Shown here: one piece after another, positions 20,358 through 46,873 of the stretch
Numbering within the stretch: position 1 is the stretch's first letter
Layout of the letters: every line of letters begins with the position of its first letter
Virus record (IMG/VR): IMGVR_UViG_3300021963_006848
Location: 33,039-97,038 of that record
From: a virus
Direction: 5' to 3' (one strand)
DNA: 64,000 nt
The notes under the pieces: generated by a model
What the model was told of the DNA's origin: nothing
The model's database searches: none
The model's input: the letters and a program-made list of their open reading frames with translations, nothing else
Made by a program: the position numbers and the translations under genes

Positions 20358-20720
20358 TTATGTCCAAAAAACCTGCACACCAATAATAGCGCATGCAAGT
20401 AAAAGACATACGAATGTTTTGGTTGTAACCGGTTCATTAAATAATGCATAACTCATTATATAAAAAACTATAATACCTATTCCAAACCCTATCAAACGGC
20501 TTGGCCAGATCTCTCCATTAAAAGCAGCTACAAATTTTTCTACTGATTTAATGAATAGAATAGAAATAGGAATTGATATTAATAAGACCCAAAATGGATA
20601 TTTAGCATACCACCCCCACTTTATATTTCCTTGGAGTTGTAGGAACGTTATGATTTGAGCCAACGTTCCATACAATGCTCCTTCTAGTAATAATTTATAC
20701 ATAATAATTTTAGTGCCCAT
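20358..20720 (-). CDS. small four-TM membrane protein (DMT-like)
   Basis: Four hydrophobic segments; start may be the downstream Met (MYKLLL). Confidence 0.6.
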   Translation of the reverse strand: MGTKIIMYKLLLEGALYGTLAQIITFLQLQGNIKWGWYAKYPFWVLLISIPISILFIKSVEKFVAAFNGEIWPSRLIGFGIGIIVFYIMSYALFNEPVTTKTFVCLLLACAIIGVQVFWT

Positions 20721-23559: not shown

Positions 23560-23823
23560 TTAATACTCTCCGTAAAGATCAAATTTCTCTGGTTCCGGAG
23601 GGGTAACTGTGATTTCCTGCTCACGGATTGCATAAAGCTTTCCGGCAAGTGGATCTAATCTATATGCTCCTTTAAACTTAGTCTTACGTAGGTAGGTTGT
23701 CAATGTTGGAACCAACCCTTCTATAACAACTCCTAAATCTATGTTCAGCTCCCAGTTATCACCAGGAGGAACACGGGTAGCAATATGCTCTGTGAATTCT
23801 TGTTTAATTACTTCTGTTGCCAT
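23560..23823 (-). CDS. hypothetical protein
   Basis: 87-aa ORF coupled to the queF stop. Confidence 0.7.
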   Translation of the reverse strand: MATEVIKQEFTEHIATRVPPGDNWELNIDLGVVIEGLVPTLTTYLRKTKFKGAYRLDPLAGKLYAIREQEITVTPPEPEKFDLYGEY

Positions 23824-24737
23824 TATTGACGTAACGTTTTAGCGATAGTGTATTCTGGTTCTGTAAAGAAATCTGGGATGTAGCTCTGATGAGTAGCTCG
23901 GATAGGGTTAATATCTAAACCTCCTCTACGGGTGTATAAACATGCTACCATTAACTGCTCTGGTTTATATGCATCAGTTAAATGCTTGAATACCATTTCA
24001 CAAATCTCTTCATGGAAGTGGGATACAGTTCTATGAGATACAATATACTTTGCTAAAGACTCAGGAGAAGGCATATTCGTACCTTCCATACGGATGTAAA
24101 CATCGCCCCAGTCTGGTTGATTTGTTACTCTACAGTTTGAACGTAATAAGTTAGACTTATACCGTACTTCTGCTGTTCCTACTTCTGCAACGAATTTAGT
24201 TTCTAACTGACTAGCATCAGATTTAAAGGAAGTAAAATCTACTTGATCTAAATCAGCTGCATCAGCTAAATCTACATAACCTTCGAATGTAATTGGATTA
24301 GCTTCTTCTATCGTTGAATAGAAACTAACTGTAGTAGTGGTATTTAGTAACTCATCTAAATCTCTCTTTACCCTAGCTTCAATACCTGCAATACAATCTG
24401 CTGCTGTTTCTCCGATACGAGTCATATTAAATGAGTTTAGGTATAGTTTAATAGATTTAGACTCTACGTGAAACTCTGAAGAAGCAGGGCATACAATCTT
24501 CAACATACCTGCTACAGGCTGTCCTTTAGTTGTAATGGCTGAAACCTCATATGCATTCCATGTATCTACTCCTACGAATTCTTTACCAGATAACTCATAA
24601 GCTTCTCGATTTAAGTATCGAGGAATCTTTACTAACAATTCCGGATCATAGGTATCTTTATAACCTTCACCACCGACTTTACCTAAATGCTTACCGGCAA
24701 TGGCTACTACTGCTTCTTGATTTTTTTCGTTTGACAT
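23823..24737 (-). CDS. queF: NADPH-dependent preQ0 reductase, bimodular type
   Basis: WNAYEVS, VESKSIKLYLNSF, SNCRVTNQPDWG, FHEEICE, YTRRGGLDINP. Confidence 0.95.
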   Translation of the reverse strand: MSNEKNQEAVVAIAGKHLGKVGGEGYKDTYDPELLVKIPRYLNREAYELSGKEFVGVDTWNAYEVSAITTKGQPVAGMLKIVCPASSEFHVESKSIKLYLNSFNMTRIGETAADCIAGIEARVKRDLDELLNTTTTVSFYSTIEEANPITFEGYVDLADAADLDQVDFTSFKSDASQLETKFVAEVGTAEVRYKSNLLRSNCRVTNQPDWGDVYIRMEGTNMPSPESLAKYIVSHRTVSHFHEEICEMVFKHLTDAYKPEQLMVACLYTRRGGLDINPIRATHQSYIPDFFTEPEYTIAKTLRQ

Positions 24738-24738
24738 A

Positions 24739-25257
24739 TTATTTTATAAAATTTAAAATTTGATCTACTCTTTGCATAGGTGAACCAGTTATAGTTAAGT
24801 AAGGTTGTCTAACTGTTTCTAATTCTGATTTAAAACGTTCATCTATCTTCTTTCTCCACTCTTCATTAACACTTCTCACTCCATCATCTACTGATTCGAA
24901 TTCAATAGGAAAATAAACATAATGTGTGTATTCTCCTTTGATTCTATTCCAAGTATCTTGAATAAAGTCATGAGTACCTCTATCTATACCATCCATGAAA
25001 CAAGTATAAACTAAAACGTCCATATAGCATCTATCTAAGACTAAGTTATAAGGCTTAAGTAAAGCTTCTAAGTGAAAAGAACTAATAGCTAACTGAGTAG
25101 CATCACTGCCATACTCGTTAATAGGAAAACCATAACTTGCTACAGTTCGAGTAGATTCATTTATAAACTCATACTTAGGTAATTTATTCTTAAGAAGCTC
25201 ATATACCGTAGTCTTACCTGTGCTACTTGCTCCTACTAATGCTATTCTTTTTATCAT
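24739..25257 (-). CDS. P-loop nucleotide kinase (AAA_28/dNMP-kinase-like)
   Basis: GASSTGKTT, LDR, DDGVR. Confidence 0.75.
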   Translation of the reverse strand: MIKRIALVGASSTGKTTVYELLKNKLPKYEFINESTRTVASYGFPINEYGSDATQLAISSFHLEALLKPYNLVLDRCYMDVLVYTCFMDGIDRGTHDFIQDTWNRIKGEYTHYVYFPIEFESVDDGVRSVNEEWRKKIDERFKSELETVRQPYLTITGSPMQRVDQILNFIK

Positions 25258-25820
25258 GACAAAACTACTTTTAAAAACTTATACCACATATACAATGCCT
25301 TATCTCTTAATGTAAGATAAAAAGCTCGTTCATCCAACCCTTCTTGTAAAAATTCTTCATAATCTATAACCTCTCCTTCGTCAACTCCAGCAGTTACTTT
25401 ATGTAAAACTGCTCCTGCAGTTACATACTGCTTATACGATCTTTCTTGAGGATCTTTACCTTTTAATTCTGGATACTTTGTAATTAGTCCTGGGTGTCCG
25501 TTAAAGATTCTATATCTATCACAAATCTCAGGAGGCATTACTCTCAACCACCCGTGCAAGGTAACTACTAGTTTCTCAGGAGGAGCTAAATGACTAAATA
25601 GGTACTCGTAATCCTGTAATGTAGGTTTATTCGGAGTTACATAGAAAAAAGGTAATTTTAGTATCCTCTCATCTACCTTACGTAAATGTTCTGGTCTTTC
25701 ATTAGTTACAATCAAATTAGGCCATCTACCTAATTTCTCAGACAATGCTACTATCTCAGAACCTGTTTGAGAGAAGAAAGCTACCCACTGATTGCTAGTA
25801 TTTGGTTGATCCGTTTGCAA
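25254..25820 (-). CDS. PurN-like formyltransferase, candidate preQ1 formyltransferase (DpdN-like)
   Basis: FSQTGS, LHGWLRV, NGHPGL, LKG.DP, HKV..GVDEG. Confidence 0.8.
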   Translation of the reverse strand: MQTDQPNTSNQWVAFFSQTGSEIVALSEKLGRWPNLIVTNERPEHLRKVDERILKLPFFYVTPNKPTLQDYEYLFSHLAPPEKLVVTLHGWLRVMPPEICDRYRIFNGHPGLITKYPELKGKDPQERSYKQYVTAGAVLHKVTAGVDEGEVIDYEEFLQEGLDERAFYLTLRDKALYMWYKFLKVVLS

Positions 25821-26598
25821 ATTGTCTAAATCTTTGAATGTTAAATAATACCTTACTTACGTCTTCTACATTAGCATTAATCATCTCAAATAATTTTTGA
25901 GACTCTTTATCCCATAAACCTTCTTCTTTATACTCAATCCCTTTAATACCATGAACTACCGGGTTAGACGTATCTAGTGAATAAATCCAGTCGTAATTTG
26001 CATGCTTATAGAATGCAAACTCTTGAGGTAATCCACATCCAAGTAAATGGTGAGGTTTATCTACATTAATAACACCGTCTTTGAGTAGATCTCCAAGTAA
26101 CTTCACACGTCCTAACATCCAGCTAACATACTTATTAGGATGTGGTACTGATTGTGTATAATACGAGTAGTCAAAAGATATAGCTATCATATCTACGTTA
26201 GCTACCTTATCCATATGTTGATAACATTCAACTATCTGCTTATATGTTCTTCCTTGAACTACCCCTATCTTTTTATTTTTAATTTCCGAGTACTTACTAT
26301 TCCACATATCCATAGAAGCCATAGTTTTAACACTATCTTCTAATACGTCTGGCACTATATACCAAGTAGGGTTTAGTTTCTTAATCCACCATGCAAATTC
26401 TTCTGAATCAAATGCATTTCCTAATTCAAAAATAGAATTATCTAGAATTACCTCTCTACCTTTCTCAATAGCATCATAAAATAAGTCATAGTACTCATAA
26501 TCTTCTGCAAATAAATGCACTAAAGCATAATCGTAGTCTGTATACTGTTGAACAGTTTCAAAAATACTTTTTGGAGATTCGTGAGCTATCTTAATCAT
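25795..26598 (-). CDS. TGT/DpdA-like TIM-barrel protein
   Basis: ILDNS.FE, VPD, VVQG, HLLG, SLDTS parallel DpdA/TGT motifs; sits in the que cluster. Confidence 0.7.
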   Translation of the reverse strand: MIKIAHESPKSIFETVQQYTDYDYALVHLFAEDYEYYDLFYDAIEKGREVILDNSIFELGNAFDSEEFAWWIKKLNPTWYIVPDVLEDSVKTMASMDMWNSKYSEIKNKKIGVVQGRTYKQIVECYQHMDKVANVDMIAISFDYSYYTQSVPHPNKYVSWMLGRVKLLGDLLKDGVINVDKPHHLLGCGLPQEFAFYKHANYDWIYSLDTSNPVVHGIKGIEYKEEGLWDKESQKLFEMINANVEDVSKVLFNIQRFRQFANGSTKY

Positions 26599-26785
26599 TT
26601 GTTATATCGTTTAGAGTTTTTTGAACATCTTGCAATTGCTCTGCTAACTTGTCAAGTAAATCATCTGCTTGCTTTGTTAGGTCAACATTATTTAACAGAG
26701 AAATAACTGCCGATAAGGGCACCATTTCAGTCTGGTATGCTTGTACATAGACAGCATGCTTTTTTATATCTTCTATTAACGACAT
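26591..26785 (-). CDS. hypothetical protein
   Basis: 64-aa ORF coupled to both neighbours. Confidence 0.65.
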   Translation of the reverse strand: MSLIEDIKKHAVYVQAYQTEMVPLSAVISLLNNVDLTKQADDLLDKLAEQLQDVQKTLNDITND

Positions 26786-27255
26786 TAGAAAAACTTTTTT
26801 AGATTTGGTTTAAAATAATTTACCGACTTCATTACCTTTCTATCTCTAGTTCGGTATACAATATAGAAGTCTCCTACCTTCTCGTAATGACAAGGCTCTC
26901 CTTGCTGCTCAGAGCGTATATTAACAGTCTCGATAGCCTCTTCTTCTGACTTACAAGCTTTAGACATATTAGATGCTTGAACTTCCGCATAAGCGTCATT
27001 AAACTTATCTTTAAGTCCGTGTAACATTACACCATTACCTAACGATACGTAAGTAATATCACATAAAGCATCTAATACTTCTACAATATCACCTTTCTCA
27101 CATGCTTCTTTATACTCTTCTAGTTCTTCTAGAATAAAGTTATATACAAATTCCCACTCTTTACGTTCAGGTATAACTGGGGTATAGTTATTTGGTTTAC
27201 CGAAGGTAGCGTTAAACAGCTCTACTTCGTTCACAAAAGGTACGTTATTTTTCAT
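26785..27255 (-). CDS. MazG-like nucleoside triphosphate pyrophosphohydrolase
   Basis: EELEE...EVLDALCDITYV...V.ASNMSK. Confidence 0.85.
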   Translation of the reverse strand: MKNNVPFVNEVELFNATFGKPNNYTPVIPERKEWEFVYNFILEELEEYKEACEKGDIVEVLDALCDITYVSLGNGVMLHGLKDKFNDAYAEVQASNMSKACKSEEEAIETVNIRSEQQGEPCHYEKVGDFYIVYRTRDRKVMKSVNYFKPNLKKFF

Positions 27256-27261
27256 ATACTT

Positions 27262-27292
27262 AATTTACGAAATTAATCAATAGGAAGCAACT
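27262..27292 (-). promoter_or_regulatory. Bacteroidota-type promoter
   Basis: AGTTG-N16-TTCGTAAATT. Confidence 0.75.
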
Positions 27293-27294
27293 TA

Positions 27295-28005
27295 TTAGTT
27301 GCGACATTTTCCTGCTAATTCTATATTCTTATAGAACTCAGCTCTACAAGAATCTTCTTTTAAAAATGCTCCTGAAAGTTTAGCTGTCTGCATTGAAGCA
27401 CCATTATGTTTAGTACCTCGGCAAGATACACAATTGTGTGTTGCATCTACCATTACAGCTACTCCTTCGTTACCTTCGCAGATCTTATCAATAGCATGAT
27501 GAATAGCTACTGTTAATTGCTCTTGGATAGCTCCTCGACGACCGAAGTATTCTACAATACGGTTTAGTTTAGATAATCCAATAACCTTACCGTCTTTACC
27601 TGGAATATAAGCTACACTAACTCGACCTTGAATAGTCTGGTGATGATGTGAACACATCGAAGTTAAAGGAATGTTACTTTCCTGTACTAATCCGTCATAA
27701 CCGTCTGATGGGAATGCTGTAATTTCTGGTGGTGCTGAGAATCGACCTGCCCATAGGTCATTTACGTATGCTTTTGCTACTCGACGTGGAGTATCAGATG
27801 AGTTTGGATCATTTCTCCAATCACACCCTAAAGCATCTAAGAACTTACCGAATGCTTCTGCAGCGTTTGAGATAATTTCATATTTCTCAGAGTCGGTAAG
27901 ATGAACATCTACCATTTTACTAATTTTTTGCTTTTCAGCTAACTGTGTGGATAAACCATTTGCGTAACCTGCTTCGGTTACCTCTAACGAATACTTCTTC
28001 TTCAT
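27295..28005 (-). CDS. folE: GTP cyclohydrolase I
   Basis: DTPRRVAK, SMCSHH, GLSKLNR, QEQLT, HNCVSCRG. Confidence 0.96.
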   Translation of the reverse strand: MKKKYSLEVTEAGYANGLSTQLAEKQKISKMVDVHLTDSEKYEIISNAAEAFGKFLDALGCDWRNDPNSSDTPRRVAKAYVNDLWAGRFSAPPEITAFPSDGYDGLVQESNIPLTSMCSHHHQTIQGRVSVAYIPGKDGKVIGLSKLNRIVEYFGRRGAIQEQLTVAIHHAIDKICEGNEGVAVMVDATHNCVSCRGTKHNGASMQTAKLSGAFLKEDSCRAEFYKNIELAGKCRN

Positions 28006-28015
28006 TTTATATGTT

Positions 28016-28042
28016 TGTTTTTAAAGTGGTGCTACGACACTA
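28016..28042 (-). promoter_or_regulatory. preQ1-I-like riboswitch candidate, copy 1 (folE leader)
   Basis: AGUG-UCGUAGCAC-CACU-UUAAAAACA; 27 nt identical to 31310-31336; lies between the promoter at 28052-28082 and the folE ATG. Confidence 0.7.
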
Positions 28043-28051
28043 CTATAACTT

Positions 28052-28082
28052 AATTTACGAAAACTTTGCTTAAGATCCAAAT
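28052..28082 (-). promoter_or_regulatory. Bacteroidota-type promoter
   Basis: ATTTG-N16-TTCGTAAATT. Confidence 0.7.
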
Positions 28083-28504
28083 TATTTCAAGTAATCTTGA
28101 ACGTAATCACTGTCTTTATTTTCCCAGGGGAATACTAACCATCTAGCATCATCGATTAACTCGCAATACTTATCCGGAACGTACTTACTATTATGCCTAA
28201 ATGCTAATGATAAAGTTAAAAATTCATAAGCATCAATTTCTGCAAAAGTAATACCTGTATCGCATATATCATCTACTACTAGAGTTTTATGTCTCAGTCG
28301 AGTAGGTAGTAATTTAGCGTCTGCTAAACTTATATAATTAATTTTGTACCTATGTGAAATTAGAACTGCAGGAATTAAACCTCCTCTAGGTAAACCTGTA
28401 ACGTATGCTATAGGTTCTTGACAATCTAGCCACATTCCAATTTTATCAATTTGACTCTCCACCCACTCCCAGGTAAGGTCTCTTGTAATAATTACTTCTC
28501 TCAT
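28082..28504 (-). CDS. type I phosphoribosyltransferase (Gpt/Hpt-like)
   Basis: GLPRGGLIPA, LVVDDICDTGIT PRPP loop, WLVFPWE. Confidence 0.9.
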   Translation of the reverse strand: MREVIITRDLTWEWVESQIDKIGMWLDCQEPIAYVTGLPRGGLIPAVLISHRYKINYISLADAKLLPTRLRHKTLVVDDICDTGITFAEIDAYEFLTLSLAFRHNSKYVPDKYCELIDDARWLVFPWENKDSDYVQDYLK

Positions 28505-28899
28505 TTATTAGAAGTAGTGTAGCTAATTGAACTTCCGGACGGATATCCTAAAGTAGTTGATGTTTTTGTAAATGGCGGTGTAGCATATGTAATTGAACCA
28601 CCACCCGGTGTTGTTGTAACTACTGCCTGCGTAGTACATGTTCCTGATAATCCTATCGGGTTAGTAAGTGGTACATCTCCTACATAAAATGGATTTACCT
28701 TATGAGGTTCTTGCCATCTTGGATATGATTCATGTACTCTAAAAGTGTTGTGATCTGAAATGATACCTCCAAGTGGTATTGAATCGTCTACTTCTTTTAA
28801 CTTATCTTTTAATGCATCCCATTGTTTTGGAGTTGGTGCGTACTCGTGGCAAGCTTCTACAAAACCTTGCATCCATGTAACAAATTCTTTTGATGTCAT
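28501..28899 (-). CDS. hypothetical protein
   Basis: 132 aa, F..W..GF N-terminus, Thr-rich tail. Confidence 0.65.
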   Translation of the reverse strand: MTSKEFVTWMQGFVEACHEYAPTPKQWDALKDKLKEVDDSIPLGGIISDHNTFRVHESYPRWQEPHKVNPFYVGDVPLTNPIGLSGTCTTQAVVTTTPGGGSITYATPPFTKTSTTLGYPSGSSISYTTSNK

Positions 28900-28904
28900 A
28901 ACTT

Positions 28905-29504
28905 TTAATTACAATTTATTTTATATTCTTGCCATTTTTTAGTAGGCGGTTGATTCGGAAAATAATAACATTCAGTTTTACCGCTCTTAGTAAATTTAAT
29001 TACTTTATAAAATGCATCAGGTACTGTGGCATTTGTAGGTAGTTTGATAGACTTATCGCTGAAAATTGCTCTAACTGTTACTTCTAACACTTCTGTATCT
29101 GCCCATACTCTCTCTTGTGCTTCCAATAGTCGCCACTCTCCTCTATTTAATCTTTCATTCTGTAAAGCAGAATTTAGATAGGTAAAAGTCTGTTTTAAGT
29201 TCTCTTTGGAGTCGGTAAAATGTGCAGCAGGAGCCATATGTCCTTTATCGTATATGTTTGCTGCGTAGTCATTATTATCAGATGTATGGTAATCTTTCTC
29301 TGTGTAGAAATCTAACCCTTTTCTATCTGCTACTTTTACTATAGGTCTTGCAGTGTATTTAACCCAGAGAGGCTGTTCTTTAGTCTCTGAATACATTACT
29401 TCAAATATTGGAGTTTTAACTAGTACTGAATCTCGTAATTGCCCGTAAGCAGTTGTTAATGTTAATAAAAATGCTAAAAGAAGCAAATTCGATTTTCTTC
29501 CCAT
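28905..29504 (-). CDS. exported DNA/RNA non-specific endonuclease (NucA-like)
   Basis: Signal peptide AYG/Q; DKGHMAPA, TF.Y.N..Q...LNRGEW..LE, VPDAFYKV. Confidence 0.9.
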   Translation of the reverse strand: MGRKSNLLLLAFLLTLTTAYGQLRDSVLVKTPIFEVMYSETKEQPLWVKYTARPIVKVADRKGLDFYTEKDYHTSDNNDYAANIYDKGHMAPAAHFTDSKENLKQTFTYLNSALQNERLNRGEWRLLEAQERVWADTEVLEVTVRAIFSDKSIKLPTNATVPDAFYKVIKFTKSGKTECYYFPNQPPTKKWQEYKINCN

Positions 29505-29764
29505 CTGTAATTGTTTAACTGTTTATAATCGGTTTCTGATAAAATTGTAACATTTTGAGTATCTACAGGATGTTCATCTATGTAGTTAATTAACTCTAGG
29601 AAAGTTACAGGACCAAATTCTATTTCGTCGTAATCTTCTGTTATTAAGTGAAGGTTACCGTTCTGTACTTTATAATCCCATACAATCAAACCATCTACTA
29701 GTATTTCAACATCTCCCATGTTGTCTATACCCACTTCAAATTTTAATATATCTTCTAAGTTCAT
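29474..29764 (-). CDS. acidic hypothetical protein; start revised to MNLEDIL
   Basis: TATTTATA motif at 29771-29778 precedes the ATG at 29764. Confidence 0.6.
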   Translation of the reverse strand: MNLEDILKFEVGIDNMGDVEILVDGLIVWDYKVQNGNLHLITEDYDEIEFGPVTFLELINYIDEHPVDTQNVTILSETDYKQLNNYRWEENRICFF

Positions 29765-29783
29765 AGTAAATATAAATAGAGGT

Positions 29784-30566
29784 TTACACAGCTCTCTTGG
29801 TATCAAAAGCAATAATATGCTCTCTACCTGTAAATCGGTATGCATTTTGAGTACACCATTCTATAACTAAAGGATATACTCTAATTAGCTCTTGACGATT
29901 ATCTCCTGGAGGCATTATAATTACCTTATTTTTAGGTATCTCTAACTCATCCAACCAAGCTCTTGTCTCTAACCATTCTTCAGGTCTCTCTACTGGATTA
30001 GCTACGATTTTAACGTGGTAATCTTTATGGTATGCCAATGTCTCTTTAATTGCTTCTTTATTGAGACGATGCCTGTTGTGCGTGTCAATAAGCTTCTGGT
30101 CCGTAACTGCACCTTGAGGAGTAAGTACCCCCAATACAGGCACACTATTGGTAAACTTAGGACTAAGACTAATAAGGTCAATAGGATAGTCGGTAGCGAG
30201 GAAATGGCTCCCTTCAGTCTCGATGGTAATAATGATACCTCTTTCATGAGCAAAATGTGTTAATTCGTTAACTAAAGCTGGATGCATTGTTGGTGAACCC
30301 CCTGTTAACATCATCTCCTTCACTTCTGGGTTCTCATCGTATATCTTAACGATATCGTTGAAATTATAAATACCTTTTTCTGGATGTATACTGGTATACC
30401 AAGAGTCACACCATCCGCCTTCTCCAAAGTAACAACGGTGAGTACAACCTGTAGTTCTAATTGCTACAGTTGGGTAGCCAGCTCTTGAACCTTCTGATTG
30501 TACGCAAGTGTACAATTCTACGATAGGTAACTTTTTACTATAATCTGTAATTCTTCCTAAACTCAT
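29784..30566 (-). CDS. queE: 7-carboxy-7-deazaguanine synthase (radical SAM)
   Basis: QSEG...G.PT..IRTTGC...C...WCDS, TGGSP, IETEG, SLSPK. Confidence 0.92.
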   Translation of the reverse strand: MSLGRITDYSKKLPIVELYTCVQSEGSRAGYPTVAIRTTGCTHRCYFGEGGWCDSWYTSIHPEKGIYNFNDIVKIYDENPEVKEMMLTGGSPTMHPALVNELTHFAHERGIIITIETEGSHFLATDYPIDLISLSPKFTNSVPVLGVLTPQGAVTDQKLIDTHNRHRLNKEAIKETLAYHKDYHVKIVANPVERPEEWLETRAWLDELEIPKNKVIIMPPGDNRQELIRVYPLVIEWCTQNAYRFTGREHIIAFDTKRAV

Positions 30567-30577
30567 TATTTTTTATT

Positions 30578-31039
30578 TTATGCTTGATAAGATGCAGAAT
30601 TTCTTTCGTGTTCGTAAACTTCTACTTTTACAGCTTTTACTCGTCCTTCGGTTTCTGCTTCTAAGAACTCATTAATTTCGTTATACAGATACTCTGCAAA
30701 TCTTTCACATCCTGTTGCAGGAAGTATACGTAACTGTATTATACCGTCTTCATCCATCTGCTTAAAGTTCTCTAAATATGGATCATCCTCTGCTACTATT
30801 GTAGTATGGTCTAATAAGTAGTTAAAGAAGTCTTTAGGTGAACTACCGTACATAGTAGTCTTTGCTCTCTTCATTCCACCAAAGTCCCATACCCAGTTAC
30901 GTTCGTCTAATTCTCCTTCGAACCATACTCTAAAAGATACTGCGTATCCATGTAAATACTTACAGTGAGTTCCTTCTGCTTTCCATTGACGAAAACAAGT
31001 AGAGTATCCGTCAAATAATTTTGTTGATTGAAATTTCAT
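30578..31039 (-). CDS. queD: 6-carboxy-5,6,7,8-tetrahydropterin synthase
   Basis: HCKYLHGY, DFG, LDH, E..A, EVYE...NSA. Confidence 0.9.
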   Translation of the reverse strand: MKFQSTKLFDGYSTCFRQWKAEGTHCKYLHGYAVSFRVWFEGELDERNWVWDFGGMKRAKTTMYGSSPKDFFNYLLDHTTIVAEDDPYLENFKQMDEDGIIQLRILPATGCERFAEYLYNEINEFLEAETEGRVKAVKVEVYEHERNSASYQA

Positions 31040-31049
31040 ATTGTATAAT

Positions 31050-31304
31050 TTAAACTAATTCTTCGTAAATTCCAACTAGTTCGGAAACAATTAACAATAC
31101 GGCTGCAATCTCTATTGAAAAAAATAGAGCTACATATCCTGCAATCCTAATACCGGATTTAAGGAAACTTACTAGTTGGTGTTTTTTTGGATCGGGAAGT
31201 TTTTGACCTTTTATTACTAAATCGTCATAAAAAGTTACTGCAGGTTTTACTTTTTTACCTTTCAGATTTCGAGATGCGTGTACTACATCATGCGGGTTTG
31301 TCAT
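31050..31304 (-). CDS. small membrane protein leading the queD-queE operon
   Basis: 84 aa with hydrophobic C-terminal half; downstream of riboswitch copy 2. Confidence 0.65.
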   Translation of the reverse strand: MTNPHDVVHASRNLKGKKVKPAVTFYDDLVIKGQKLPDPKKHQLVSFLKSGIRIAGYVALFFSIEIAAVLLIVSELVGIYEELV

Positions 31305-31309
31305 GGGTG

Positions 31310-31336
31310 TGTTTTTAAAGTGGTGCTACGACACTA
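31310..31336 (-). promoter_or_regulatory. preQ1-I-like riboswitch candidate, copy 2
   Basis: Identical 27-mer; lies between the promoter at 31349-31379 and the ATG at 31304. Confidence 0.7.
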
Positions 31337-31348
31337 TTGTCTAAAACT

Positions 31349-31379
31349 AATGTACGAATAATTATCTTACGAAACAACT
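31349..31379 (-). promoter_or_regulatory. Bacteroidota-type promoter
   Basis: AGTTG-N16-TTCGTACATT. Confidence 0.75.
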
Positions 31380-31383
31380 TTTA

Positions 31384-31500
31384 CTAAAAATTCTTATAAA
31401 TAAAAGGGTCTCTTTTTTTTAATTCTTCTATTTTCTTCTTAAACTCTCTTTTCTTTTTCCAGTTTTTGAAAAGTTTCTTTATAGTATCTAAAAATTTCAT
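31384..31500 (-). CDS. 38-aa basic peptide coupled to the carbamoyltransferase (DPFIY motif)
   Basis: MKFLDTIKKLFKNWKKKREFKKKIEELKKRDPFIYKNF; ATGA overlap with the upstream stop. Confidence 0.65.
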   Translation of the reverse strand: MKFLDTIKKLFKNWKKKREFKKKIEELKKRDPFIYKNF

Positions 31501-33176
31501 TTGTGTTTCATTTTAATAATGAGGTAGTTATCTATTACAAGAAAATCCATCTTACTATCTAAAAATCTCTCTACTGCTTGCTTTGGTGTTATAGTAATTG
31601 TCTGATCCTTAAAATTAAAAGATGTATTTAAACATATAGGATAACCTGATATACGTTTCAATGCTAAAAGCAATTGGTAATACCTTGGGTTTTGTTCTTT
31701 AGTAACTGTTTGAACTCTTGCTGTATTATCAATATGAGTAATAGAAGGTAGTCTGTGGTTCTTTTTAACTTCTACAACTTGATTCATATAAGGTACCGGT
31801 TCTTTTATATCGAAAAATATTTTAGCGTCTTCTTCTATACATGAAGGAGCGAAAGGTCTAAAGCTTTCTCTCTTTTTGATAACTTTGTTGATTTTATCTT
31901 TAATACCTGGATGAAGAGGTGAAGCAAGTATAGACCTATTACCTAGAGCTCTTGCTCCAAATTCCATATTACCTTGGAACCATCCTACTATATTCCCGCT
32001 ATGGATTATAGATGCTACCTTATTCAGAAGTCTCTCTTCTGTAGGGTATCTAAAGTAGTATATCTTGTTACCAAAGTACTCTAATTGAGTACGTATACTT
32101 ACTTCATTGAAAGAAGGACCTGTGTAAGGAACGCTATTATCCTTTCTAGGACCTTTATAAGATGCTAAGCATGCACCAATAGCAGAACCTGCATCTGAAG
32201 GTGCAAATGGTATGTGGATTGATGAATAATGTTTATATGCTTTTGTGTTAGCTAATCCATTATACGCACATCCGCCTCCTAAACAGAGATTATCAGAATT
32301 AACTAATTCTTTAGCTTTCTCTAGAATTCTATTAAACTGCTTTTCGTAAATAAACTGTACAGCTGCTGCTAGATCATAATCATCTTGTGTAATTTCATCT
32401 TCCGGAAGGCGAGGACCTCTACCTAATACATTACATAGGTCAGAAGTAAACATTATCTTATCTGAATACTCCCAAGTAAAGTATTCTGGGTAAAATGAAA
32501 AAATTGATTCTTTTTCGAATTTAAAAAGCTTATGAAGGAATGGAACATACTTACTAGCATCTCCATATCCAGCCATACCCATAACTTTGTACTCACCTTC
32601 GTTAGGTTTGAAGCCAAGAAATGCGGTAAAGGTAGAGTAGAATAATCCTAAAGATTCTGGGAAGTTAATAGCAAATACTTTTTCTATAGAACTATCTTTT
32701 GCTTTTGAAATTGTAACTGTTTCAAACTCTCCAACTCCGTCTATAGTTACAACTGCCGCTTCTTTGTAAGGGCTAGTAAAATAGGAAAATGCTGCGTGAG
32801 ATAAATGGTGTTCAACATACCTAACAGGGCCTTGGTATAGGAAATGTTTTGCTAATAAAAAGTTAGGATTGTGAAGTTCTTTTCTCTCTTTGAGAAATTT
32901 TAATCTTCTAAAGAATGTACGAAAAGGATATTTGTTAAAAGATTTGAGTACTCTTGCTCTCTTTAATTCTGGAATCTCATACCAGCAAACTTCGTCAATG
33001 TCGTTTATTGTAAGTTTACTTGCTCTTAAAACCCATTTGATCGCATCTACTGGAAAACTATCGTCATGTTTGATACCTGATAGCTTTTCTTGTTCAATGG
33101 CATAAAGAACCTTACCGTCTTTAACGATGCATGCTGCAGAGTCGTGGTAAAATGCTGAAATGCCTAGTTGTATCAT
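31497..33176 (-). CDS. O-carbamoyltransferase, NodU/CmcH family
   Basis: HDSAA, EHHLSHAA, DGVGE, YKVMGMAGYG, EFGARALGNRS, RESFRPFAP, LNTSFN. Confidence 0.95.
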   Translation of the reverse strand: MIQLGISAFYHDSAACIVKDGKVLYAIEQEKLSGIKHDDSFPVDAIKWVLRASKLTINDIDEVCWYEIPELKRARVLKSFNKYPFRTFFRRLKFLKERKELHNPNFLLAKHFLYQGPVRYVEHHLSHAAFSYFTSPYKEAAVVTIDGVGEFETVTISKAKDSSIEKVFAINFPESLGLFYSTFTAFLGFKPNEGEYKVMGMAGYGDASKYVPFLHKLFKFEKESIFSFYPEYFTWEYSDKIMFTSDLCNVLGRGPRLPEDEITQDDYDLAAAVQFIYEKQFNRILEKAKELVNSDNLCLGGGCAYNGLANTKAYKHYSSIHIPFAPSDAGSAIGACLASYKGPRKDNSVPYTGPSFNEVSIRTQLEYFGNKIYYFRYPTEERLLNKVASIIHSGNIVGWFQGNMEFGARALGNRSILASPLHPGIKDKINKVIKKRESFRPFAPSCIEEDAKIFFDIKEPVPYMNQVVEVKKNHRLPSITHIDNTARVQTVTKEQNPRYYQLLLALKRISGYPICLNTSFNFKDQTITITPKQAVERFLDSKMDFLVIDNYLIIKMKHK

Positions 33177-33214
33177 ACTCTTATAAATAGAACTTTATTA
33201 TTTTTTACTAGACG

Positions 33215-33288
33215 TGGACCAACCTGGGCTCGAACCAGGGACCTACTGATTATGAGTCAGTTGCTCTAACCAACTGAGCTATAAGTCC
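33215..33288 (-). tRNA. tRNA with CAT anticodon, probably Ile2 (lysidine type), otherwise elongator Met
   Basis: GGACTTATAGCTCAGTTGGTTAGAGCAACTGACT-CAT-AATCAGTAGGTCCCTGGTTCGAGCCCAGGTTGGTCCA. Confidence 0.9.
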
Positions 33289-33291
33289 AAG

Positions 33292-33388
33292 TACCTACCA
33301 GATGAATATTTTATCCCCATATGGGCCACGGCCATTAAGTGCGTTACTTTCATTCATCGGCCATCACACAGTTTCACTGCTTAAGGTA
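33292..33388 (-). ncRNA. small structured element between tRNA genes
   Basis: TACCT/AGGTA ends, GATGAAT/ATTCATC, ATGGCC/GGCCGT crossing pair, CCCATATGGG hairpin. Confidence 0.4.
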
Positions 33389-33392
33389 AGTG

Positions 33393-33561
33393 CTGTAGAG
33401 GAAGGAGTCGAACCTTCACGCGGCGATTCAATAAATGACATTCTTGCTAGCTAGCGTGTGGTCAACCCATTATCATTTATCTATCTCTTATCCGCACCCT
33501 CGAGACGGGAGGGCATGTCTGCCACGACCGGGGACACCCCAATCCATTCCACCACTCTACA
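33393..33561 (-). ncRNA. 169-nt tRNA-like RNA with D-loop hairpin insert and very long variable arm
   Basis: Acceptor TGTAGAG/CTCTACA, T arm GAAGG-TTCGACT-CCTTC, stem CCCTC/GAGGG with loop CCGTCTC. Confidence 0.75.
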
Positions 33562-33577
33562 ATAAAAAAAAGAAACG

Positions 33578-33663
33578 TACCTCGAGCCAGAGTCGAACTG
33601 GCACGGGCGTTTCTGCCCACAAGATTTTAAGTCTTGCATGTCTACCTATTTCATCATCGAGGC
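33578..33663 (-). tRNA. tRNA-Leu(TAA)
   Basis: Class II cloverleaf, CAAGA-CTTAAAA-TCTTG, variable arm GGGC/GCCC. Confidence 0.95.
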
Positions 33664-33680
33664 AGGTACGTTAATTTTAA

Positions 33681-34536
33681 GTAAGCCTGAGACTACAGCT
33701 CTAACGCTAGATCTTTTGAGGTATTATCTTAATTCCCCTCTTGTCCAGAGACTTTTGATCTCTATTCTAGCAATGCTGGTTATTTAGGTGAACCACTCCT
33801 TGAGCTACTTATTATTTGGACTACTCTCTCCCTACTCGTCTCTATTCAAATCTGCCGACCTGATTAACCCTTGCGAGGCTATAGAACTTTCTAGAGAATC
33901 ACTCTTGACTTGCGATCTTAAGTGGCACTGAACAGCTCAGTACTATGTAAGCATCTTTCGTCCGTAGCTGGCAAGCGCTTTTGCTTTTATGATTATGTAT
34001 TTTTGAAAATGCAATAATTCAAAAGTTAGCGACTTGTGGATTGTAAAGGTAGCGGCCTGCCCTAAGCTCTCTTAACTTTTGATCAAGAGAATACTTAACT
34101 ACCTTTTGAAGTGTCCCCACCTCCATACTTTAAGATATCTTCATAACTAACATCTTGGTAGATGCTTGCTAAGGTAGATAACAGCACCACCTGTACACCT
34201 ACTTGCCTTTCAGCTTTAAGATACCTCTTATATTGAGCAACGCAATAATATACTTGGATAAGTATACTTCTTGCAAATACCCTACAGGTTAATCTTATTA
34301 CTCTTCCGAGCTCAACTAAACGACCCACATCGCCTAGTCACTAAACCACTTTCCCTAAAGTGTTACCCTCAGTACTTAAGGTTTAATGATACCCTGCTTG
34401 CATACTTAAGCTCTTGCGAGCCGCAAACTACCTCAGTCAAAGCAGTTCACTTTACACCGGTTTCCCGGTTTATTTACCGACTATATGCCGCCGAATGTTA
34501 TTTATGATTTAGCCGAAGCTTCATCAATGGATAACA
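33681..34536 (-). ncRNA. large (~850 nt) structured non-coding RNA, GOLLD-like
   Basis: No credible ORF, many GNRA/UUCG-capped hairpins, own promoter and boxA, followed by tRNAs; ends approximate. Confidence 0.7.
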
Positions 34537-34538
34537 AT

Positions 34539-34551
34539 GTTTTCAAAGAAC
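34539..34551 (-). promoter_or_regulatory. boxA-like antitermination element
   Basis: GTTCTTTGAAAAC just downstream of the promoter at 34566-34596. Confidence 0.55.
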
Positions 34552-34565
34552 GTTTTATTTAATTT

Positions 34566-34596
34566 AAGATAAGAACTTTATTTCGTATCTCCAACT
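34566..34596 (-). promoter_or_regulatory. Bacteroidota-type promoter for the ncRNA/tRNA operon
   Basis: AGTTG-N16-TTCTTATCTT. Confidence 0.7.
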
Positions 34597-34599
34597 AAT

Positions 34600-34827
34600 T
34601 TAGTAAATTTTATTTTCCTGATTTCTTCTAGCTTCTTCTGCTTCTTTGTACATATTAATCCATGTCAAAGATACATCTACAGGAGCTAAAACCCAAGCCA
34701 TAACTAAAACCATAATTGAGTCTAGTTCTGGAGAATTACCCATACTATCTACACCAACTCTTTTATACTTTTTATGTAATTGTATAAAACAGTAAATGAT
34801 ACAAATGATATAGTAGGGGACAAACAT
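34600..34827 (-). CDS. small membrane protein
   Basis: Two hydrophobic segments; promoter at 34847-34877. Confidence 0.6.
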   Translation of the reverse strand: MFVPYYIICIIYCFIQLHKKYKRVGVDSMGNSPELDSIMVLVMAWVLAPVDVSLTWINMYKEAEEARRNQENKIY

Positions 34828-34846
34828 ATAACTTCTTATTTAATTT

Positions 34847-34877
34847 AATATACGAACGTTAGTTCTAAATTGCAACT
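34847..34877 (-). promoter_or_regulatory. Bacteroidota-type promoter
   Basis: AGTTG-N16-TTCGTATATT. Confidence 0.75.
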
Positions 34878-34885
34878 TTTTTTTA

Positions 34886-35092
34886 TTAAAATTTTCCCGG
34901 CCTGAAATAGGGTATATAAGCTTTTCCTCTAATAGCACGTTGCTGATTGAAAGGGTGTGTTCTGAAGTAATACCCTCTGATTTTGTTTCGATGGTTCCAT
35001 AGTCGCTTTTCATGAATCGACATTTTCATTGGCATCCATACACAGCTACTTAGTAGTAATATAACACTCATTAATAATAATAACTTTTTCAT
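34886..35092 (-). CDS. small basic putative lipoprotein
   Basis: MKK, hydrophobic stretch, LSSC lipobox. Confidence 0.6.
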   Translation of the reverse strand: MKKLLLLMSVILLLSSCVWMPMKMSIHEKRLWNHRNKIRGYYFRTHPFNQQRAIRGKAYIPYFRPGKF

Positions 35093-35094
35093 AA

Positions 35095-35940
35095 TTATAA
35101 CTGTTTAATGTATTCTAGTAATCTGTCTTCTGGTTGCCATCCAAGTCTTTCTATGGCGTCTTTATTTTCTCTTAAAGTCTCTCTGTAGTTACCTTTTTGT
35201 TCTCTCATGTAGACTTTAACGCAGTTAAATTTTTCTACAAACATATTAGCAACTTGATTTATAGAGTAATTTTTACCTGTTCCTAATTCCCAAGCATCTT
35301 CGTGTTTTTCATCACTCTCTGCAACTTTAATTAATCCATCTACAATATCTCTTATATGAGTGAAATCTCGTCTCTGTTCTCCATCACCTACTATGGTGAT
35401 AGGGTAGTTTTTAGCAACTTGACCTCTCCATCTACCTATAACTGCTGCCCAATCTCCTTCTAAAATTTCATTAGGTCCGTATACATTGTAGAATCTTACA
35501 ATTTCAGCATCTAAGTTAAACACCTGCTTATACATCTTTATAATTTCTTCCCCCATGTGTTTAGAACATGCATATGGAGACTGCAAAGGGTTATGCCATC
35601 TAGAAGAAGATCCTGCATATATAACTTTAGCTTCTATTTGATGAGCAAACTTACATACATCCAAAGTTCCTTGAGTATTAACTCTAAAGGTTTCTTGTGG
35701 GTTAGCAAAGGAAGGCTGTATTCTACTTAAAGCAGCTAAGTGATAGATAAGATCGAAATCTTTATCCATTAAGTCTATTCGCTCTATATCACCATACCAG
35801 TAATGGCAACCTGGGATTTCGTATTCTTTAAACCCTACAGAAAGGTCATCTAATGAAGTGACAGAATGTCCTTCTATTACCAACCTTTTTATAAGGTTAC
35901 TTCCTACAAATCCATTTCCTCCAGTAACTAATATCTTCAT
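35095..35940 (-). CDS. NAD-dependent nucleotide-sugar epimerase/dehydratase; start revised to MKILVTGG
   Basis: GGNGFVG, HLAA, YACSK (YxxxK), RFYNVYGP, GDGEQRRDF; the longer ORF call overlaps a tRNA. Confidence 0.9.
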   Translation of the reverse strand: MKILVTGGNGFVGSNLIKRLVIEGHSVTSLDDLSVGFKEYEIPGCHYWYGDIERIDLMDKDFDLIYHLAALSRIQPSFANPQETFRVNTQGTLDVCKFAHQIEAKVIYAGSSSRWHNPLQSPYACSKHMGEEIIKMYKQVFNLDAEIVRFYNVYGPNEILEGDWAAVIGRWRGQVAKNYPITIVGDGEQRRDFTHIRDIVDGLIKVAESDEKHEDAWELGTGKNYSINQVANMFVEKFNCVKVYMREQKGNYRETLRENKDAIERLGWQPEDRLLEYIKQL

Positions 35941-35955
35941 ATAAACCTTATCTAG

Positions 35956-36027
35956 TTGCGGGAGAAGGATTCGAACCTCCGACCCCAAGGTTATGAGCCT
36001 TGTGAGCTACCTCTGCTCTATCCCGCG
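35956..36027 (-). tRNA. tRNA-Met(CAT), initiator-like
   Basis: CGCGGGA...TCCCGCA-A with C1:A72 mismatch; CAAGG-CTCATAA-CCTTG. Confidence 0.9.
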
Positions 36028-36035
36028 ATATAATG

Positions 36036-36108
36036 TACTCCGTAGGGGTTTCGAACCCCTAATCTCCTCCGTGAAAGGGAGGCGACTTAACCGTTTGTCC
36101 AACGGAGC
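36036..36108 (-). tRNA. tRNA-Glu(TTC)
   Basis: GCTCCGT/ACGGAGT, CCTCC-CTTTCAC-GGAGG, AGGGG-TTCGAAA-CCCCT. Confidence 0.92.
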
Positions 36109-36115
36109 GGAATTG

Positions 36116-36498
36116 TGGAGATGGAGGGAGTCGAACCCTCGTCCAAATACGGATTTAATAAACCTCATTCACAAGCTTAGTTAATTTTTCTAAATTAACA
36201 AAATATAAAGTTTGATAAATGTGGGAACCAAACTTTCAAACAACCTGGTCTCGAAATTATTTAATAGAGCTCCGACCTGTTACTCCAACTCTCACTTCTT
36301 TTTAAATTCCCATGAGTGATACGGGAAAGATTAGGCAGCTACTGCGTAATCAGCACCTACGAAAGCCATAGCGTCTTCGAAAGTGAAAGAAGATAATTCT
36401 TCTGCGTTTATTGTTTGATAGGTGTTTAAGGATTTCCATCTAATCCTGCTTGCATCAATTGTACCAACTCATCGTACCTGTCAAAACCGGGCATCCCC
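36116..36498 (-). ncRNA. ssrA: tmRNA with tag AEELSSFTFEDAMAFVGADYAVAA*
   Basis: GGGGATG/CATCTCC acceptor with G3:U, TTTGAC, GGACGAGGGTTCGACTCCCTC T arm, ATAAAC-GCA resume site, tag ORF at 36331-36405. Confidence 0.93.
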
Positions 36499-36503
36499 AA
36501 TTG

Positions 36504-36575
36504 AGCTTCCTCGAGGAATCGAACCCCGTTATCCTGAGTACAAATCAGGCGCATCACCATTTATGCTTAGGAAGC
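36504..36575 (-). tRNA. tRNA-Thr(TGT)
   Basis: GCTTCCT/AGGAAGC, CCTGA-TTTGTAC-TCAGG. Confidence 0.92.
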
Positions 36576-36577
36576 AA

Positions 36578-36716
36578 TTTAGGAAAGGAGAAGATGGTTG
36601 CGTGGACATCTCCTTTTATGATTGGCATTACTTAGGTGTATTTTTCCCAACTCCGATGATACCCGCCAAAATACACTCTCGAGCCATTGATACCATCATT
36701 CCCCAATCAACCTAAA
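36578..36716 (-). ncRNA. ~139-nt structured RNA candidate upstream of tRNA-Thr
   Basis: TTTAGG/CCTAAA, TGATTGG/CCAATCA, GTGTATTTT/AAAATACAC, AAAGGAGA/TCTCCTTT stems. Confidence 0.55.
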
Positions 36717-36724
36717 AGGTTTTT

Positions 36725-36913
36725 TTACTTTACTTCAGTTTCAGCTTTTGGAGCTTCTTCAGCAGGAATTTCTGCTACTGTAGAATCTGTTGCTGTTACT
36801 GCAGCTGTATCTACTGCTACTGCTGTTGAGTCTGTTGCTACTGCTTCTGATTTACCGTTACCGCATGATGCTAATGTAACTACTAAAGCTGTTGCTAAGA
36901 TTACTTTTTTCAT
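36725..36913 (-). CDS. small Ala/Thr-rich lipoprotein
   Basis: LASC lipobox, DST/DTA motifs. Confidence 0.8.
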   Translation of the reverse strand: MKKVILATALVVTLASCGNGKSEAVATDSTAVAVDTAAVTATDSTVAEIPAEEAPKAETEVK

Positions 36914-36956
36914 AATTGTTTTTGTTTTTGTTTAAATTTACTGATATATAAATAGT

Positions 36957-37796
36957 TTACTTGATATGTTCTGCTAAAACTTTTTCTACATGGGATTTAG
37001 CTACTTCCCATTCAACTGGTCCTGTCTCGTCTTCGTATTGAACAGGATCTTTACGGCCCAACTTAATAAAAGCTTCAATACGCTCCACAGAGCTAGCAGA
37101 CTTATAGTCGCTATTACCAGAAGGGTAAGGCTTATATGAAGTGTTAGTTCTCTTGTACACCTCATCAAAGTCCAAACCGAGTGTTTCACATGCTTTAAGT
37201 CCATCTTCTAGAATACCAAATTTATCTGTATCTAAATAGGGAGTATAAAACTTAACACGTTCTGCATCCCAGTTACCAATTCTAAATGCTTCCATATCTG
37301 CATCTCTAAACTCTTGACGACAGTCAGGGTAGATTGCATGATCTCCAGCATGAATACCTAGAGAAATAAAGGTATCTTCTTTTGTTTCGTTCGCTACTGA
37401 TAAAGCTACTGCTTGTACTAATGAACTAAAGATCTTATTACGATTAGGTACAACAGTATCTTTCATGTTATCTTGTTCGTAATGACCTTCCGGTACATCT
37501 TTACCTCCTTCAACTAATGCTGAGTTTAGTAGTTCTTTCAACCCATCTAATTTAATAATCTGATGTGTTGGTGGGAGAAAAGAATAATTCTTATCGTTAT
37601 CAAACGGTGGATGCATAGCATTCCATATCTCATTAATATACTCTACTAATGATGTTGCACGTTCTAACTCTACTCTATGTTTCTGACCGTAATCAAAAGA
37701 CAAAGTAGTAACTCTGTAGCCATTTGCTAACAAATGTAGTAATAAAGTAGAGGAGTCCATCCCTCCAGATAAGGACAATACAGCATTCTTCGCCAT
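36957..37796 (-). CDS. queC: 7-cyano-7-deazaguanine synthase
   Basis: SLSGGMDS, FDYGQKH, VVPNRN, HAGD...YPDCR. Confidence 0.95.
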   Translation of the reverse strand: MAKNAVLSLSGGMDSSTLLLHLLANGYRVTTLSFDYGQKHRVELERATSLVEYINEIWNAMHPPFDNDKNYSFLPPTHQIIKLDGLKELLNSALVEGGKDVPEGHYEQDNMKDTVVPNRNKIFSSLVQAVALSVANETKEDTFISLGIHAGDHAIYPDCRQEFRDADMEAFRIGNWDAERVKFYTPYLDTDKFGILEDGLKACETLGLDFDEVYKRTNTSYKPYPSGNSDYKSASSVERIEAFIKLGRKDPVQYEDETGPVEWEVAKSHVEKVLAEHIK

Positions 37797-46303: not shown

Positions 46304-46773
46304 TATAAAAGTTGGTTTATTATTCCTTCACAAGTTTTTTTCAAAGCAGCTGAGATGTCTGAATCAGATATCTTACCTCCTTTGTCGAGAATAACAACAG
46401 ACGTAACTAATGTCTTAGCCTGTTCTTTTATAATAACGCTTTTCTTTTTCTTACCGTTTTCGTATAACGTACCCTTTGCAATGATTTCAGTGATATCGGA
46501 AGTTTTTCCGTATACTGCAATCTGTGTAGTCACTTTTTTAACATCAAAATATAGCAACTCAACTTGTAGAGTTATAGTTGCATTTGGTGCTAAATCAAAA
46601 CCTTTATCTTGAATAACTTCTTCTAGAATATTTTTTACTCCAAAAGAAAGGTCTCTGCTTCCGGCATGAGGACCCATTAAAATTTTATTTTCTACGTCTC
46701 CTACTTTAACTGCATTTTGAGCATATAAAGTACTATTGAATATCAATAGAAAACTTATTAACAAAAATTTCAT
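46303..46773 (-). CDS. exported protein, possibly CsgG/TolB-N-like fold
   Basis: Signal LYA/Q; GVKNILEE, C-terminal SAALKK helix resembling the 240-aa protein. Confidence 0.55.
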   Translation of the reverse strand: MKFLLISFLLIFNSTLYAQNAVKVGDVENKILMGPHAGSRDLSFGVKNILEEVIQDKGFDLAPNATITLQVELLYFDVKKVTTQIAVYGKTSDITEIIAKGTLYENGKKKKSVIIKEQAKTLVTSVVILDKGGKISDSDISAALKKTCEGIINQLL

Positions 46774-46873
46774 AAGTATATGTTATGTTAGCTGTTAGCA
46801 CAACGATTCTTACGAAACTTTTATTCTAGTATAAATATCGGGGATTTGTATTTACTGTATTACTTTTTACTAC

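Follow-up and report, generated by a model that had tools for sequence, protein, structure and literature searches.

The window analysed here, a stretch of 64,000 nucleotides forming the last 64 kb of the 97-kb IMG/VR virus record IMGVR_UViG_3300021963_006848 (estimated completeness ~54%), is a fragment of an uncultured Flavobacterium-type phage and carries a 7-deazaguanine DNA modification cluster on its minus strand (23823-37796; record coordinate (G000) = window coordinate + 33038). This cluster is expected to be a module of the type found in phage immuto_2-6A, replacing genomic guanine with 7-(formylamino)methyl-7-deazaguanine (fdPreQ1). At its core, a small P-loop kinase accompanies DpdA3, a minimal protein with the fold of tRNA-guanine transglycosylase (TGT), and in a census of DpdA3 loci the linkage between kinase and DpdA3 is equal in tightness to that between QueF and DpdA3. 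Such constant companionship hints at a free nucleotide as the form in which the new base reaches DNA. Judged from the gene content, the most likely route would operate at the nucleotide level and be centred on DpdA3 and the kinase, not on the phosphoribosyltransferase (PRTase) that is also encoded in the cluster; our confidence in this is evenly divided.

The expectation of fdPreQ1 in the DNA of the window phage follows from the orthology of DpdA3 and DpdN, and from synteny, with immuto_2-6A. The window DpdA3 (25795-26598, minus strand, 267 amino acids (aa); no Pfam match, identified by an AlphaFold2 (AF2) model and by identity to immuto DpdA) is 73% identical to the DpdA of immuto_2-6A over 99% of the protein and groups with it in the DpdA3 family tree, which settles the subfamily of what the preliminary description of the window, made from the sequence alone, had called a DpdA-like protein. 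Identity is 50% between the formyltransferase and immuto DpdN (YP_010114479) and 65% between the two kinases. Gene set and order are the same in both phages: QueD, QueE, PRTase, FolE, a hydrolase (MazG), DpdA3, DpdN, a ‘thymidylate kinase’, QueF and PolA, then GroES/GroEL. Cui et al. (2023, Nucleic Acids Research, PMC10516641), who named both the DpdA3 subfamily and DpdN, measured 345,000 fdPreQ1 per 10^6 nucleotides in immuto_2-6A DNA, in which the deoxyguanosine (dG) peak was gone. Thus the earlier suggestion of a cluster of the formyl-preQ1 type was borne out, DpdA3 and DpdN being orthologous to those of a phage whose DNA is fully fdPreQ1-substituted. The two systems differ in that the window cluster additionally contains an Endonuclease_NS nuclease, a carbamoyltransferase, an epimerase, a GOLLD RNA and a transfer-messenger RNA (tmRNA), and in that DNA was measured for immuto_2-6A, whereas the window phage is known from sequence alone. 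Megablast of the cluster against phage records gave no nucleotide-level match to any isolate. The module is a new example of an already known system, and the window itself brings no new chemistry.

In the window, the kinase (24739-25257; Pfam AAA_28, 6e-17) lies between DpdN, a formyltransferase of the PurN family (25254-25820; Formyl_trans_N 1.5e-6, PurN 2.6e-8), and the bimodular NADPH-dependent preQ0 reductase QueF (23823-24737; Pfam QueF_N 1.3e-28, QueF 9.3e-18; TIGR03138 8e-70), all on the minus strand. For the census of DpdA3 neighbourhoods, ~300 IMG/VR DpdA3 loci were collected with four queries and open reading frames (ORFs) were called in each; once redundancy had been removed (98% DpdA3 identity), the set comprised 184 loci, which fall into 48 groups at 70% identity, and neighbouring proteins were clustered annotation-free. 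All counts were made within 3 kb of DpdA3 in a well-flanked set of 108 loci (35 groups) with at least 3 kb on either side of the gene. The AAA_28 kinase is present in 95/108 loci and 27/35 groups, closely matching QueF (95/108 loci, 26/35 groups) and followed by DpdN (78/108 loci, 23/35 groups), FolE (65/108 loci, 16/35 groups) and QueE (35/108 loci); the PRTase occurs in 47/108 loci but 6/35 groups, and MazG of the window type in 45/108 loci but 2-3 of 35 groups. The recurrent gene order is DpdA3-(DpdN)-kinase-QueF. The kinase keeps its position beside DpdA3/DpdN across 27 groups and unrelated backbones (Campylobacter T4-like, phiST and immuto-like), and it is absent from the whole fetched locus in only 8 well-flanked loci, including that of phiST, where an AAA_18 kinase occupies the corresponding position. 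As a control of little diversity, 18 DpdA1 (9g-type) loci were inspected; all 18 contain FolE and QueE, and one gave a marginal kinase match.

The kinase sequence shows a P-loop and a DR motif, and the Arg within its DDGVRS segment is invariant. The AF2 model of the kinase (predicted local distance difference test (pLDDT) 93.7) best matches deoxyadenosine, deoxyguanosine and deoxycytidine kinases, the ribosylnicotinamide kinase domain of NadR, YorR and thymidylate kinases. Because the model matches deoxynucleoside kinases (dNKs), NadR and thymidylate kinases, the protein is predicted to be a small-molecule nucleoside or nucleotide kinase, unlike DNA-motor ATPases such as DpdB; the modelled fold leaves both nucleoside and monophosphate as candidate substrates.

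The AF2 model of DpdA3 (pLDDT 97.4, from a 131-sequence alignment) matches TGT with a Foldseek E value of 3e-8, and superimposes on the Z. mobilis and P. horikoshii TGTs (VIA) with Z 17.5 and a root mean squared deviation of 3.2 Å over 232 residues at 12-15% identity. Modelling thus places DpdA3 firmly among the TGTs by fold, as a TGT-type TIM barrel. The family profile finds Salmonella DpdA (Protein Data Bank (PDB) 7UI4) weakly (E 0.44), with the DpdA3 segment HLLG...DTSNP aligning with the segment of Leu236 and the nucleophile Asp256; D209, the Asp of the DTSNP motif, is aligned to the Asp256 motif of 7UI4 only at this profile E value. D53, D84 and D209 are invariant or nearly so among the 131 sequences, and D53 and D84 are candidate counterparts of the catalytic Asp95 and Asp130. 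DpdA3 shares with bacterial DpdA (7UI4) and TGT the TIM-barrel fold and has a nucleophile region that is weakly alignable with that of DpdA, but it is far smaller (~265 aa versus 350-430 aa), has no DpdB-like partner and lacks the structural Zn site, which is kept in TGT and DpdA (PMC10164549). The absence of this site was deduced from the sequence that follows the nucleophile, where no Cys/His cluster is seen: Cys does not occur beyond residue 188, and the last 58 residues hold no conserved grouping of Cys and His. Members of the family are mostly acidic (median pI 5.5), which we considered too weak an argument against DNA binding by DpdA3.

The DpdA3 family is very large and is highly abundant in viromes from aquatic environments: >5,000 protein clusters are counted at 90% identity and 1,607 representatives at the 50%-identity level, and IMG/VR yields >595 stretches. 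Natural fusions of DpdA3 to DpdN and to QueF exist, and one DpdA3 form carries an intein. Metagenomic relatives with fusions or extensions are P0111, P0003 and P0152/P0153/P0155; in P0111 the protein is extended at its C terminus by a part that resembles GNAT on visual inspection and hints at other acyl-preQ1 variants, and P0003 has an extra N-terminal part of 317 aa to which no domain was assigned.

Two further characterized phages with DpdA3, CP220 (dADG) and phiST (dDG), resemble the window in that DpdA3 stands beside a small P-loop kinase and an NTP hydrolase (an HD domain in CP220, a MazG-like protein in phiST), and in that complete replacement of guanine has been reported for them (PMC10516641). 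They differ in lacking QueF or DpdN, and so in their final bases, and their DpdA3 proteins are only distantly related to that of the window: 42-44% identical for the hypothetical proteins of the Campylobacter CP220 group, 22% for phiST. In the CP220 locus (L082, 10862-13355), DpdA3 lies between a protein in which an HD domain is fused to an AAA_33 kinase and an AAA_28 kinase, with no QueF nearby. Phages of the CP220 type have a second copy of the AAA_28 kinase near 5.4 kb of the genome.

These observations can be accommodated by a scheme with a part for every gene, in which DpdA3 would be not a DNA transglycosylase but an enzyme that swaps the base of a free deoxynucleoside or deoxynucleotide, the first of the TGT fold to do so, forming with the kinase a pre-replicative route to 7-deazaguanine deoxynucleoside triphosphates (dNTPs); we hold this assignment to have roughly equal chances of proving right or wrong. 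The preQ1 synthesis set is complete, all five enzymes having been matched by Pfam/NCBIfam. By homology to characterised families, guanosine triphosphate (GTP) would be converted to preQ0 by the GTP cyclohydrolase I FolE (27295-28005; Pfam GTP_cyclohydroI 9e-44), the 6-carboxytetrahydropterin synthase QueD (30578-31039; Pfam PTPS 1.2e-15), the radical SAM 7-carboxy-7-deazaguanine synthase QueE (29784-30566; Pfam Radical_SAM 4.6e-9, syntenic with the annotated immuto QueE) and the preQ0 synthase QueC (36957-37796; Pfam QueC 4.8e-37, TIGR00364 3.5e-35), all encoded on the minus strand, and QueF would take preQ0 to preQ1; the formyl group, too, is assigned by family homology, to DpdN. MazG would cleave dGTP to dGMP, both depleting the competitor and feeding DpdA3, as MazZ does in Z-genome phages. 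DpdA3 would swap guanine for preQ1 or another deazaguanine on free dG or dGMP, DpdN would add the formyl group to the product, and the dNK-like kinase would phosphorylate the modified product; host enzymes would finish the dNTP, which the phage PolA would incorporate. The guanine released could be returned by the Gpt-like PRTase through guanosine monophosphate (GMP) to the GTP pool that feeds FolE, and the Endonuclease_NS nuclease could supply nucleotides from host nucleic acid.

Complete replacement of a base is typical of nucleotide-pool pathways. It was found in all three DpdA3 lineages tested (CP220, phiST and immuto), whereas phages with DpdA1, DpdA2 or DpdA4 and bacteria with DpdA show replacement of 30% or less (PMC10516641). 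The nucleotide-level route is favoured because 100% replacement is seen only in DpdA3 phages, because the dNK-like kinase is embedded in the operon and because this kinase is absent from DpdA1 loci. It is favoured also because DpdA3 is pared down, lacks the Zn site and could not be made active in E. coli (Cui et al. 2023, PMC10516641), because the ADG nucleoside was found in CP220-infected cells, as cited in that paper, and because CP220 keeps an AAA_28 kinase beside DpdA3 with no QueF nearby. For Campylobacter phages, a route through a modified dGTP was put forward at a time when DpdA3 had yet to be recognised, and Hutinet et al. (2019) considered that deoxyribosyltransferases might have gone undetected; our literature search found no paper demonstrating a pre-replicative deazaguanine route.

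The preliminary description had likewise proposed a nucleotide-level pathway, and the part of it that stood is the dNK/NadR-like kinase, which lies inside a DpdA3-DpdN-kinase-QueF block in most loci. The part that fell is the assignment of the PRTase and MazG to the core of the route, since both are confined to few clades (only 6 and 2 of the 35 DpdA3 groups, respectively).

Several points weigh against the nucleotide-level route. To our knowledge, all characterised members of the TGT/DpdA superfamily act on a polynucleotide, and DpdA3, judged from its alignments, retains the fold and the nucleophile motif, so that base exchange on DNA is fully possible. The restriction of the PRTase and of window-type MazG to few DpdA3 clades counts here too, as does the fact that the specificity of the predicted enzymes is not readable from sequence. 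In 89 Streptomyces phages, homologues of the kinase (28-30% identity) form part of the replication module; in the single such locus examined, that of Samisti12, no deazaguanine genes were found near the homologue; because the family occurs in Streptomyces phages with no deazaguanine genes nearby, the kinase could be a general nucleotide-supply enzyme. No fusion of DpdA3 to the kinase was found in longer-homologue searches with DpdA3 and kinase queries, in a profile search or in local HMM scans: the first returned QueF fusions and the intein form with DpdA3 and one dubious Asn-synthase chimera with the kinase, and the profile search yielded stand-alone proteins only. Finally, Cui et al. (2023, PMC10516641) proposed post-replicative insertion, on the grounds that every deazaguanine phage encodes some DpdA.

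In such a post-replicative scheme, PolA would make G-containing DNA and DpdA3 would act on this polymer, putting preQ1 or formyl-preQ1 in place of each G, with kinase, PRTase and MazG serving supply only: released guanine would pass through GMP and GDP to GTP and on to FolE. This we regard as a serious possibility, if a somewhat doubtful one. It has published backing (PMC10516641), DpdA3 has the TGT fold and nucleophile motif of the DNA-acting DpdA, the PRTase is closest to guanine/xanthine PRTases and would fit the salvage of released guanine, and the kinase family extends to phages with no deazaguanine genes nearby. It leaves unexplained, however, why most DpdA3 loci should place a dNK-like kinase between DpdN and QueF although every host has a guanylate kinase, why this kinase is absent from DpdA1 loci and why 100% replacement is limited to DpdA3 phages; moreover, DpdA3 showed no activity on DNA when tried in E. 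coli (PMC10516641) and has lost the Zn subdomain.

Two other explanations assign the decisive part elsewhere or to none of the accessory enzymes. The biosynthesis of toyocamycin and tubercidin is known to use PRTases that accept deazapurine bases, and the Gpt-like PRTase of the window, encoded between FolE and QueE, might in the same manner as ToyH/TubE join preQ1 or formyl-preQ1 to phosphoribosyl pyrophosphate; the kinase would then raise the product to the diphosphate, the phage ribonucleotide reductase (RNR) reduce it and PolA incorporate it, with DpdA3 confined to repair or some minor function. The contig does carry class I RNR genes (NrdA and NrdB, approximate limits 61265-63890, minus strand; PF02867 and PF00268 at G000 94303-96928), but they lie ~24 kb from the deazaguanine cluster and RNR is a common phage gene. 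Further, the PRTase is near DpdA3 in 6/35 groups and none was detected in CP220, whose guanine is still 100% replaced, and it is DpdA3 that is the universal component; such a pathway seems unlikely. Alternatively, kinase, MazG, PRTase and nuclease could be ordinary nucleotide-metabolism genes that happen to share an early-gene block with the que genes. Phage genes of nucleotide metabolism often cluster, and unrelated genes are interleaved here (carbamoyltransferase, epimerase, tRNAs, tmRNA and GOLLD RNA), but the kinase stays beside DpdA3 and DpdN in 27 groups and across unrelated phage backbones, and mere coincidence is thus improbable enough to carry very little weight with us.

The nucleotide-level route would follow the logic of two established base-replacement systems, the hydroxymethylcytosine (hmC) of T4 (gp42, the gp1 kinase and the gp56 dCTPase) and the Z-genome of S-2L (PurZ, MazZ and DatZ), in which an enzyme making the modified deoxynucleoside monophosphate (dNMP), a dedicated kinase and an NTP pyrophosphatase stand beside the replicase. 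The likeness extends to complete replacement, seen in immuto_2-6A, the relative of the window phage. The systems differ in that their key enzymes show no homology, in that exchange by a TGT fold as the dNMP-forming step is without precedent, and in that the activities in the window are predicted.

Where a bulky 7-deazaguanine takes the place of all guanine, many restriction and CRISPR nucleases are blocked. The only published proposal for how 100% replacement comes about is exchange on finished DNA by DpdA3; the question of mechanism is readily testable. If true, the nucleotide-level route would account for the restriction of 100% replacement to DpdA3 phages and would overturn the published post-replicative assignment; it would bring a new activity for the TGT fold, a further natural pre-replicative pathway of base replacement beside those for hmC, hydroxymethyluracil (hmU) and Z, and an enzymatic route to 7-substituted 7-deaza-dGTPs, useful for sequencing and DNA labelling.

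In alignments of DpdN with PurN structures, the Asn-His and Asp catalytic positions match, and DpdN is predicted to place the formyl group on the aminomethyl nitrogen-bearing arm of preQ1; the substrate of PurN likewise presents an aminomethyl group, borne on ribose 5-phosphate, which offers an analogy only. The MazG-like protein, an all-alpha NTP pyrophosphohydrolase (26785-27255, minus strand; Pfam PRA-PH 4.8e-10), is conserved in immuto-like loci and gave no informative relative among solved structures. The short Gpt-like 6-oxopurine PRTase (28082-28504, minus strand, 140 aa; phrog_8995 1e-13, NCBIfam xanthine PRTase 2.6e-9) is present in phiST and immuto, and its nearest solved structures are 1vdm (1.8e-7) and E. 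coli XGPRT (5e-3), that is, the short Gpt/XGPRT type. The earlier proposal that it makes the modified nucleotide was not upheld: the enzyme resembles guanine/xanthine Gpt proteins, and guanine salvage would fit equally well. The DNA/RNA non-specific endonuclease (28905-29504, minus strand; Pfam Endonuclease_NS 8e-27) is present in 44/81 immuto-like loci.

PolA, a family A DNA polymerase with a 3'-5' exonuclease domain (20710-23025, minus strand; Pfam DNA_pol_A 9.6e-60, DNA_pol_A_exo1), adjoins the cluster and is linked to it by position; it had been described as next to the que genes, which holds insofar as it adjoins them, with two small ORFs lying between PolA and QueF. Compared with the Klenow fragment, PolA has DYESLEPH as motif A and HDQL as motif C (Gln at E883), and its motif B carries Asn at R755 and Leu at F762; the DY(E/T)SLEPH and HDQL motifs are common to ~50 immuto-like PolA sequences. 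As an adaptation to modified dNTPs these changes were rejected, because other DpdA3 phages use different polymerases and because ordinary polymerases are known to accept 7-deaza-dGTP analogues. No feature of PolA specifically points to it as the user of a modified dNTP, the part it had been given in the preliminary description.

The window was annotated by Pfam, PHROG and NCBIfam scans, with RNAs assigned by Rfam and ARAGORN; its GC content is ~34%, and the minus strand carries almost all genes. All genes named in the preliminary description were recovered on that strand by these scans, the DpdA-like protein by its AF2 model; its inventory did not list the nuclease, the carbamoyltransferase, the epimerase, five tRNAs, the tmRNA and the GOLLD RNA. 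QueC is set apart from the other que genes by ~6 kb of unrelated features, because the carbamoyltransferase, the epimerase, the tRNAs, the tmRNA and the GOLLD RNA intervene. Between 23000 and 38500, no Rfam match to a preQ1 riboswitch was found at E values up to 1.

The carbamoyltransferase, of the NodU/CmcH type (31497-33176, minus strand; Pfam Carbam_trans_N and Carbam_trans_C), accompanies DpdA3 in only 16-17 loci of one clade, and the NAD-dependent sugar-nucleotide epimerase/dehydratase of the short-chain dehydrogenase/reductase type (35095-35988, minus strand; Pfam Epimerase 6e-45) is found in 6/81 immuto-like loci. A second pair of carbamoyltransferase and epimerase/dehydratase lies at 51336-52307 and 52312-53874, near glycosyltransferase-rich regions, and two group-1 glycosyltransferases are encoded at 9620-12344. 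A role of the first pair as extra preQ1-modifying enzymes was rejected as the probable reading: occurrence in a single clade, together with the second pair and the two glycosyltransferases elsewhere in the window, points to sugar chemistry, and both proteins probably stand outside the deazaguanine pathway. The two pairs and the two glycosyltransferases suggest, by their annotation, a carbamoylated-sugar pathway.

The GOLLD RNA (33684-34106, probably to ~34540, minus strand) matches the full 416-position model of Rfam RF02032 with 271.5 bits (E 2.5e-76) and lies within the deazaguanine span, directly upstream of tRNA-Leu and tRNA-Met. The tmRNA (36113-36498, minus strand; Rfam 116.6 bits) has tRNA-Thr, tRNA-Glu and tRNA-Met as its flanking genes; the tag predicted for it by ARAGORN is 24 residues long, with YAVAA at its end. 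The five tRNAs inside the cluster span comprise tRNA-Met (twice), tRNA-Leu, tRNA-Glu and tRNA-Thr. Farther along the window, an ORF of 875 aa with no Pfam match (48671-51298, minus strand) lies within a region (46000-52000) in which GC reaches 0.40-0.47, compared with 0.34 in the background, and the GC skew switches sign.

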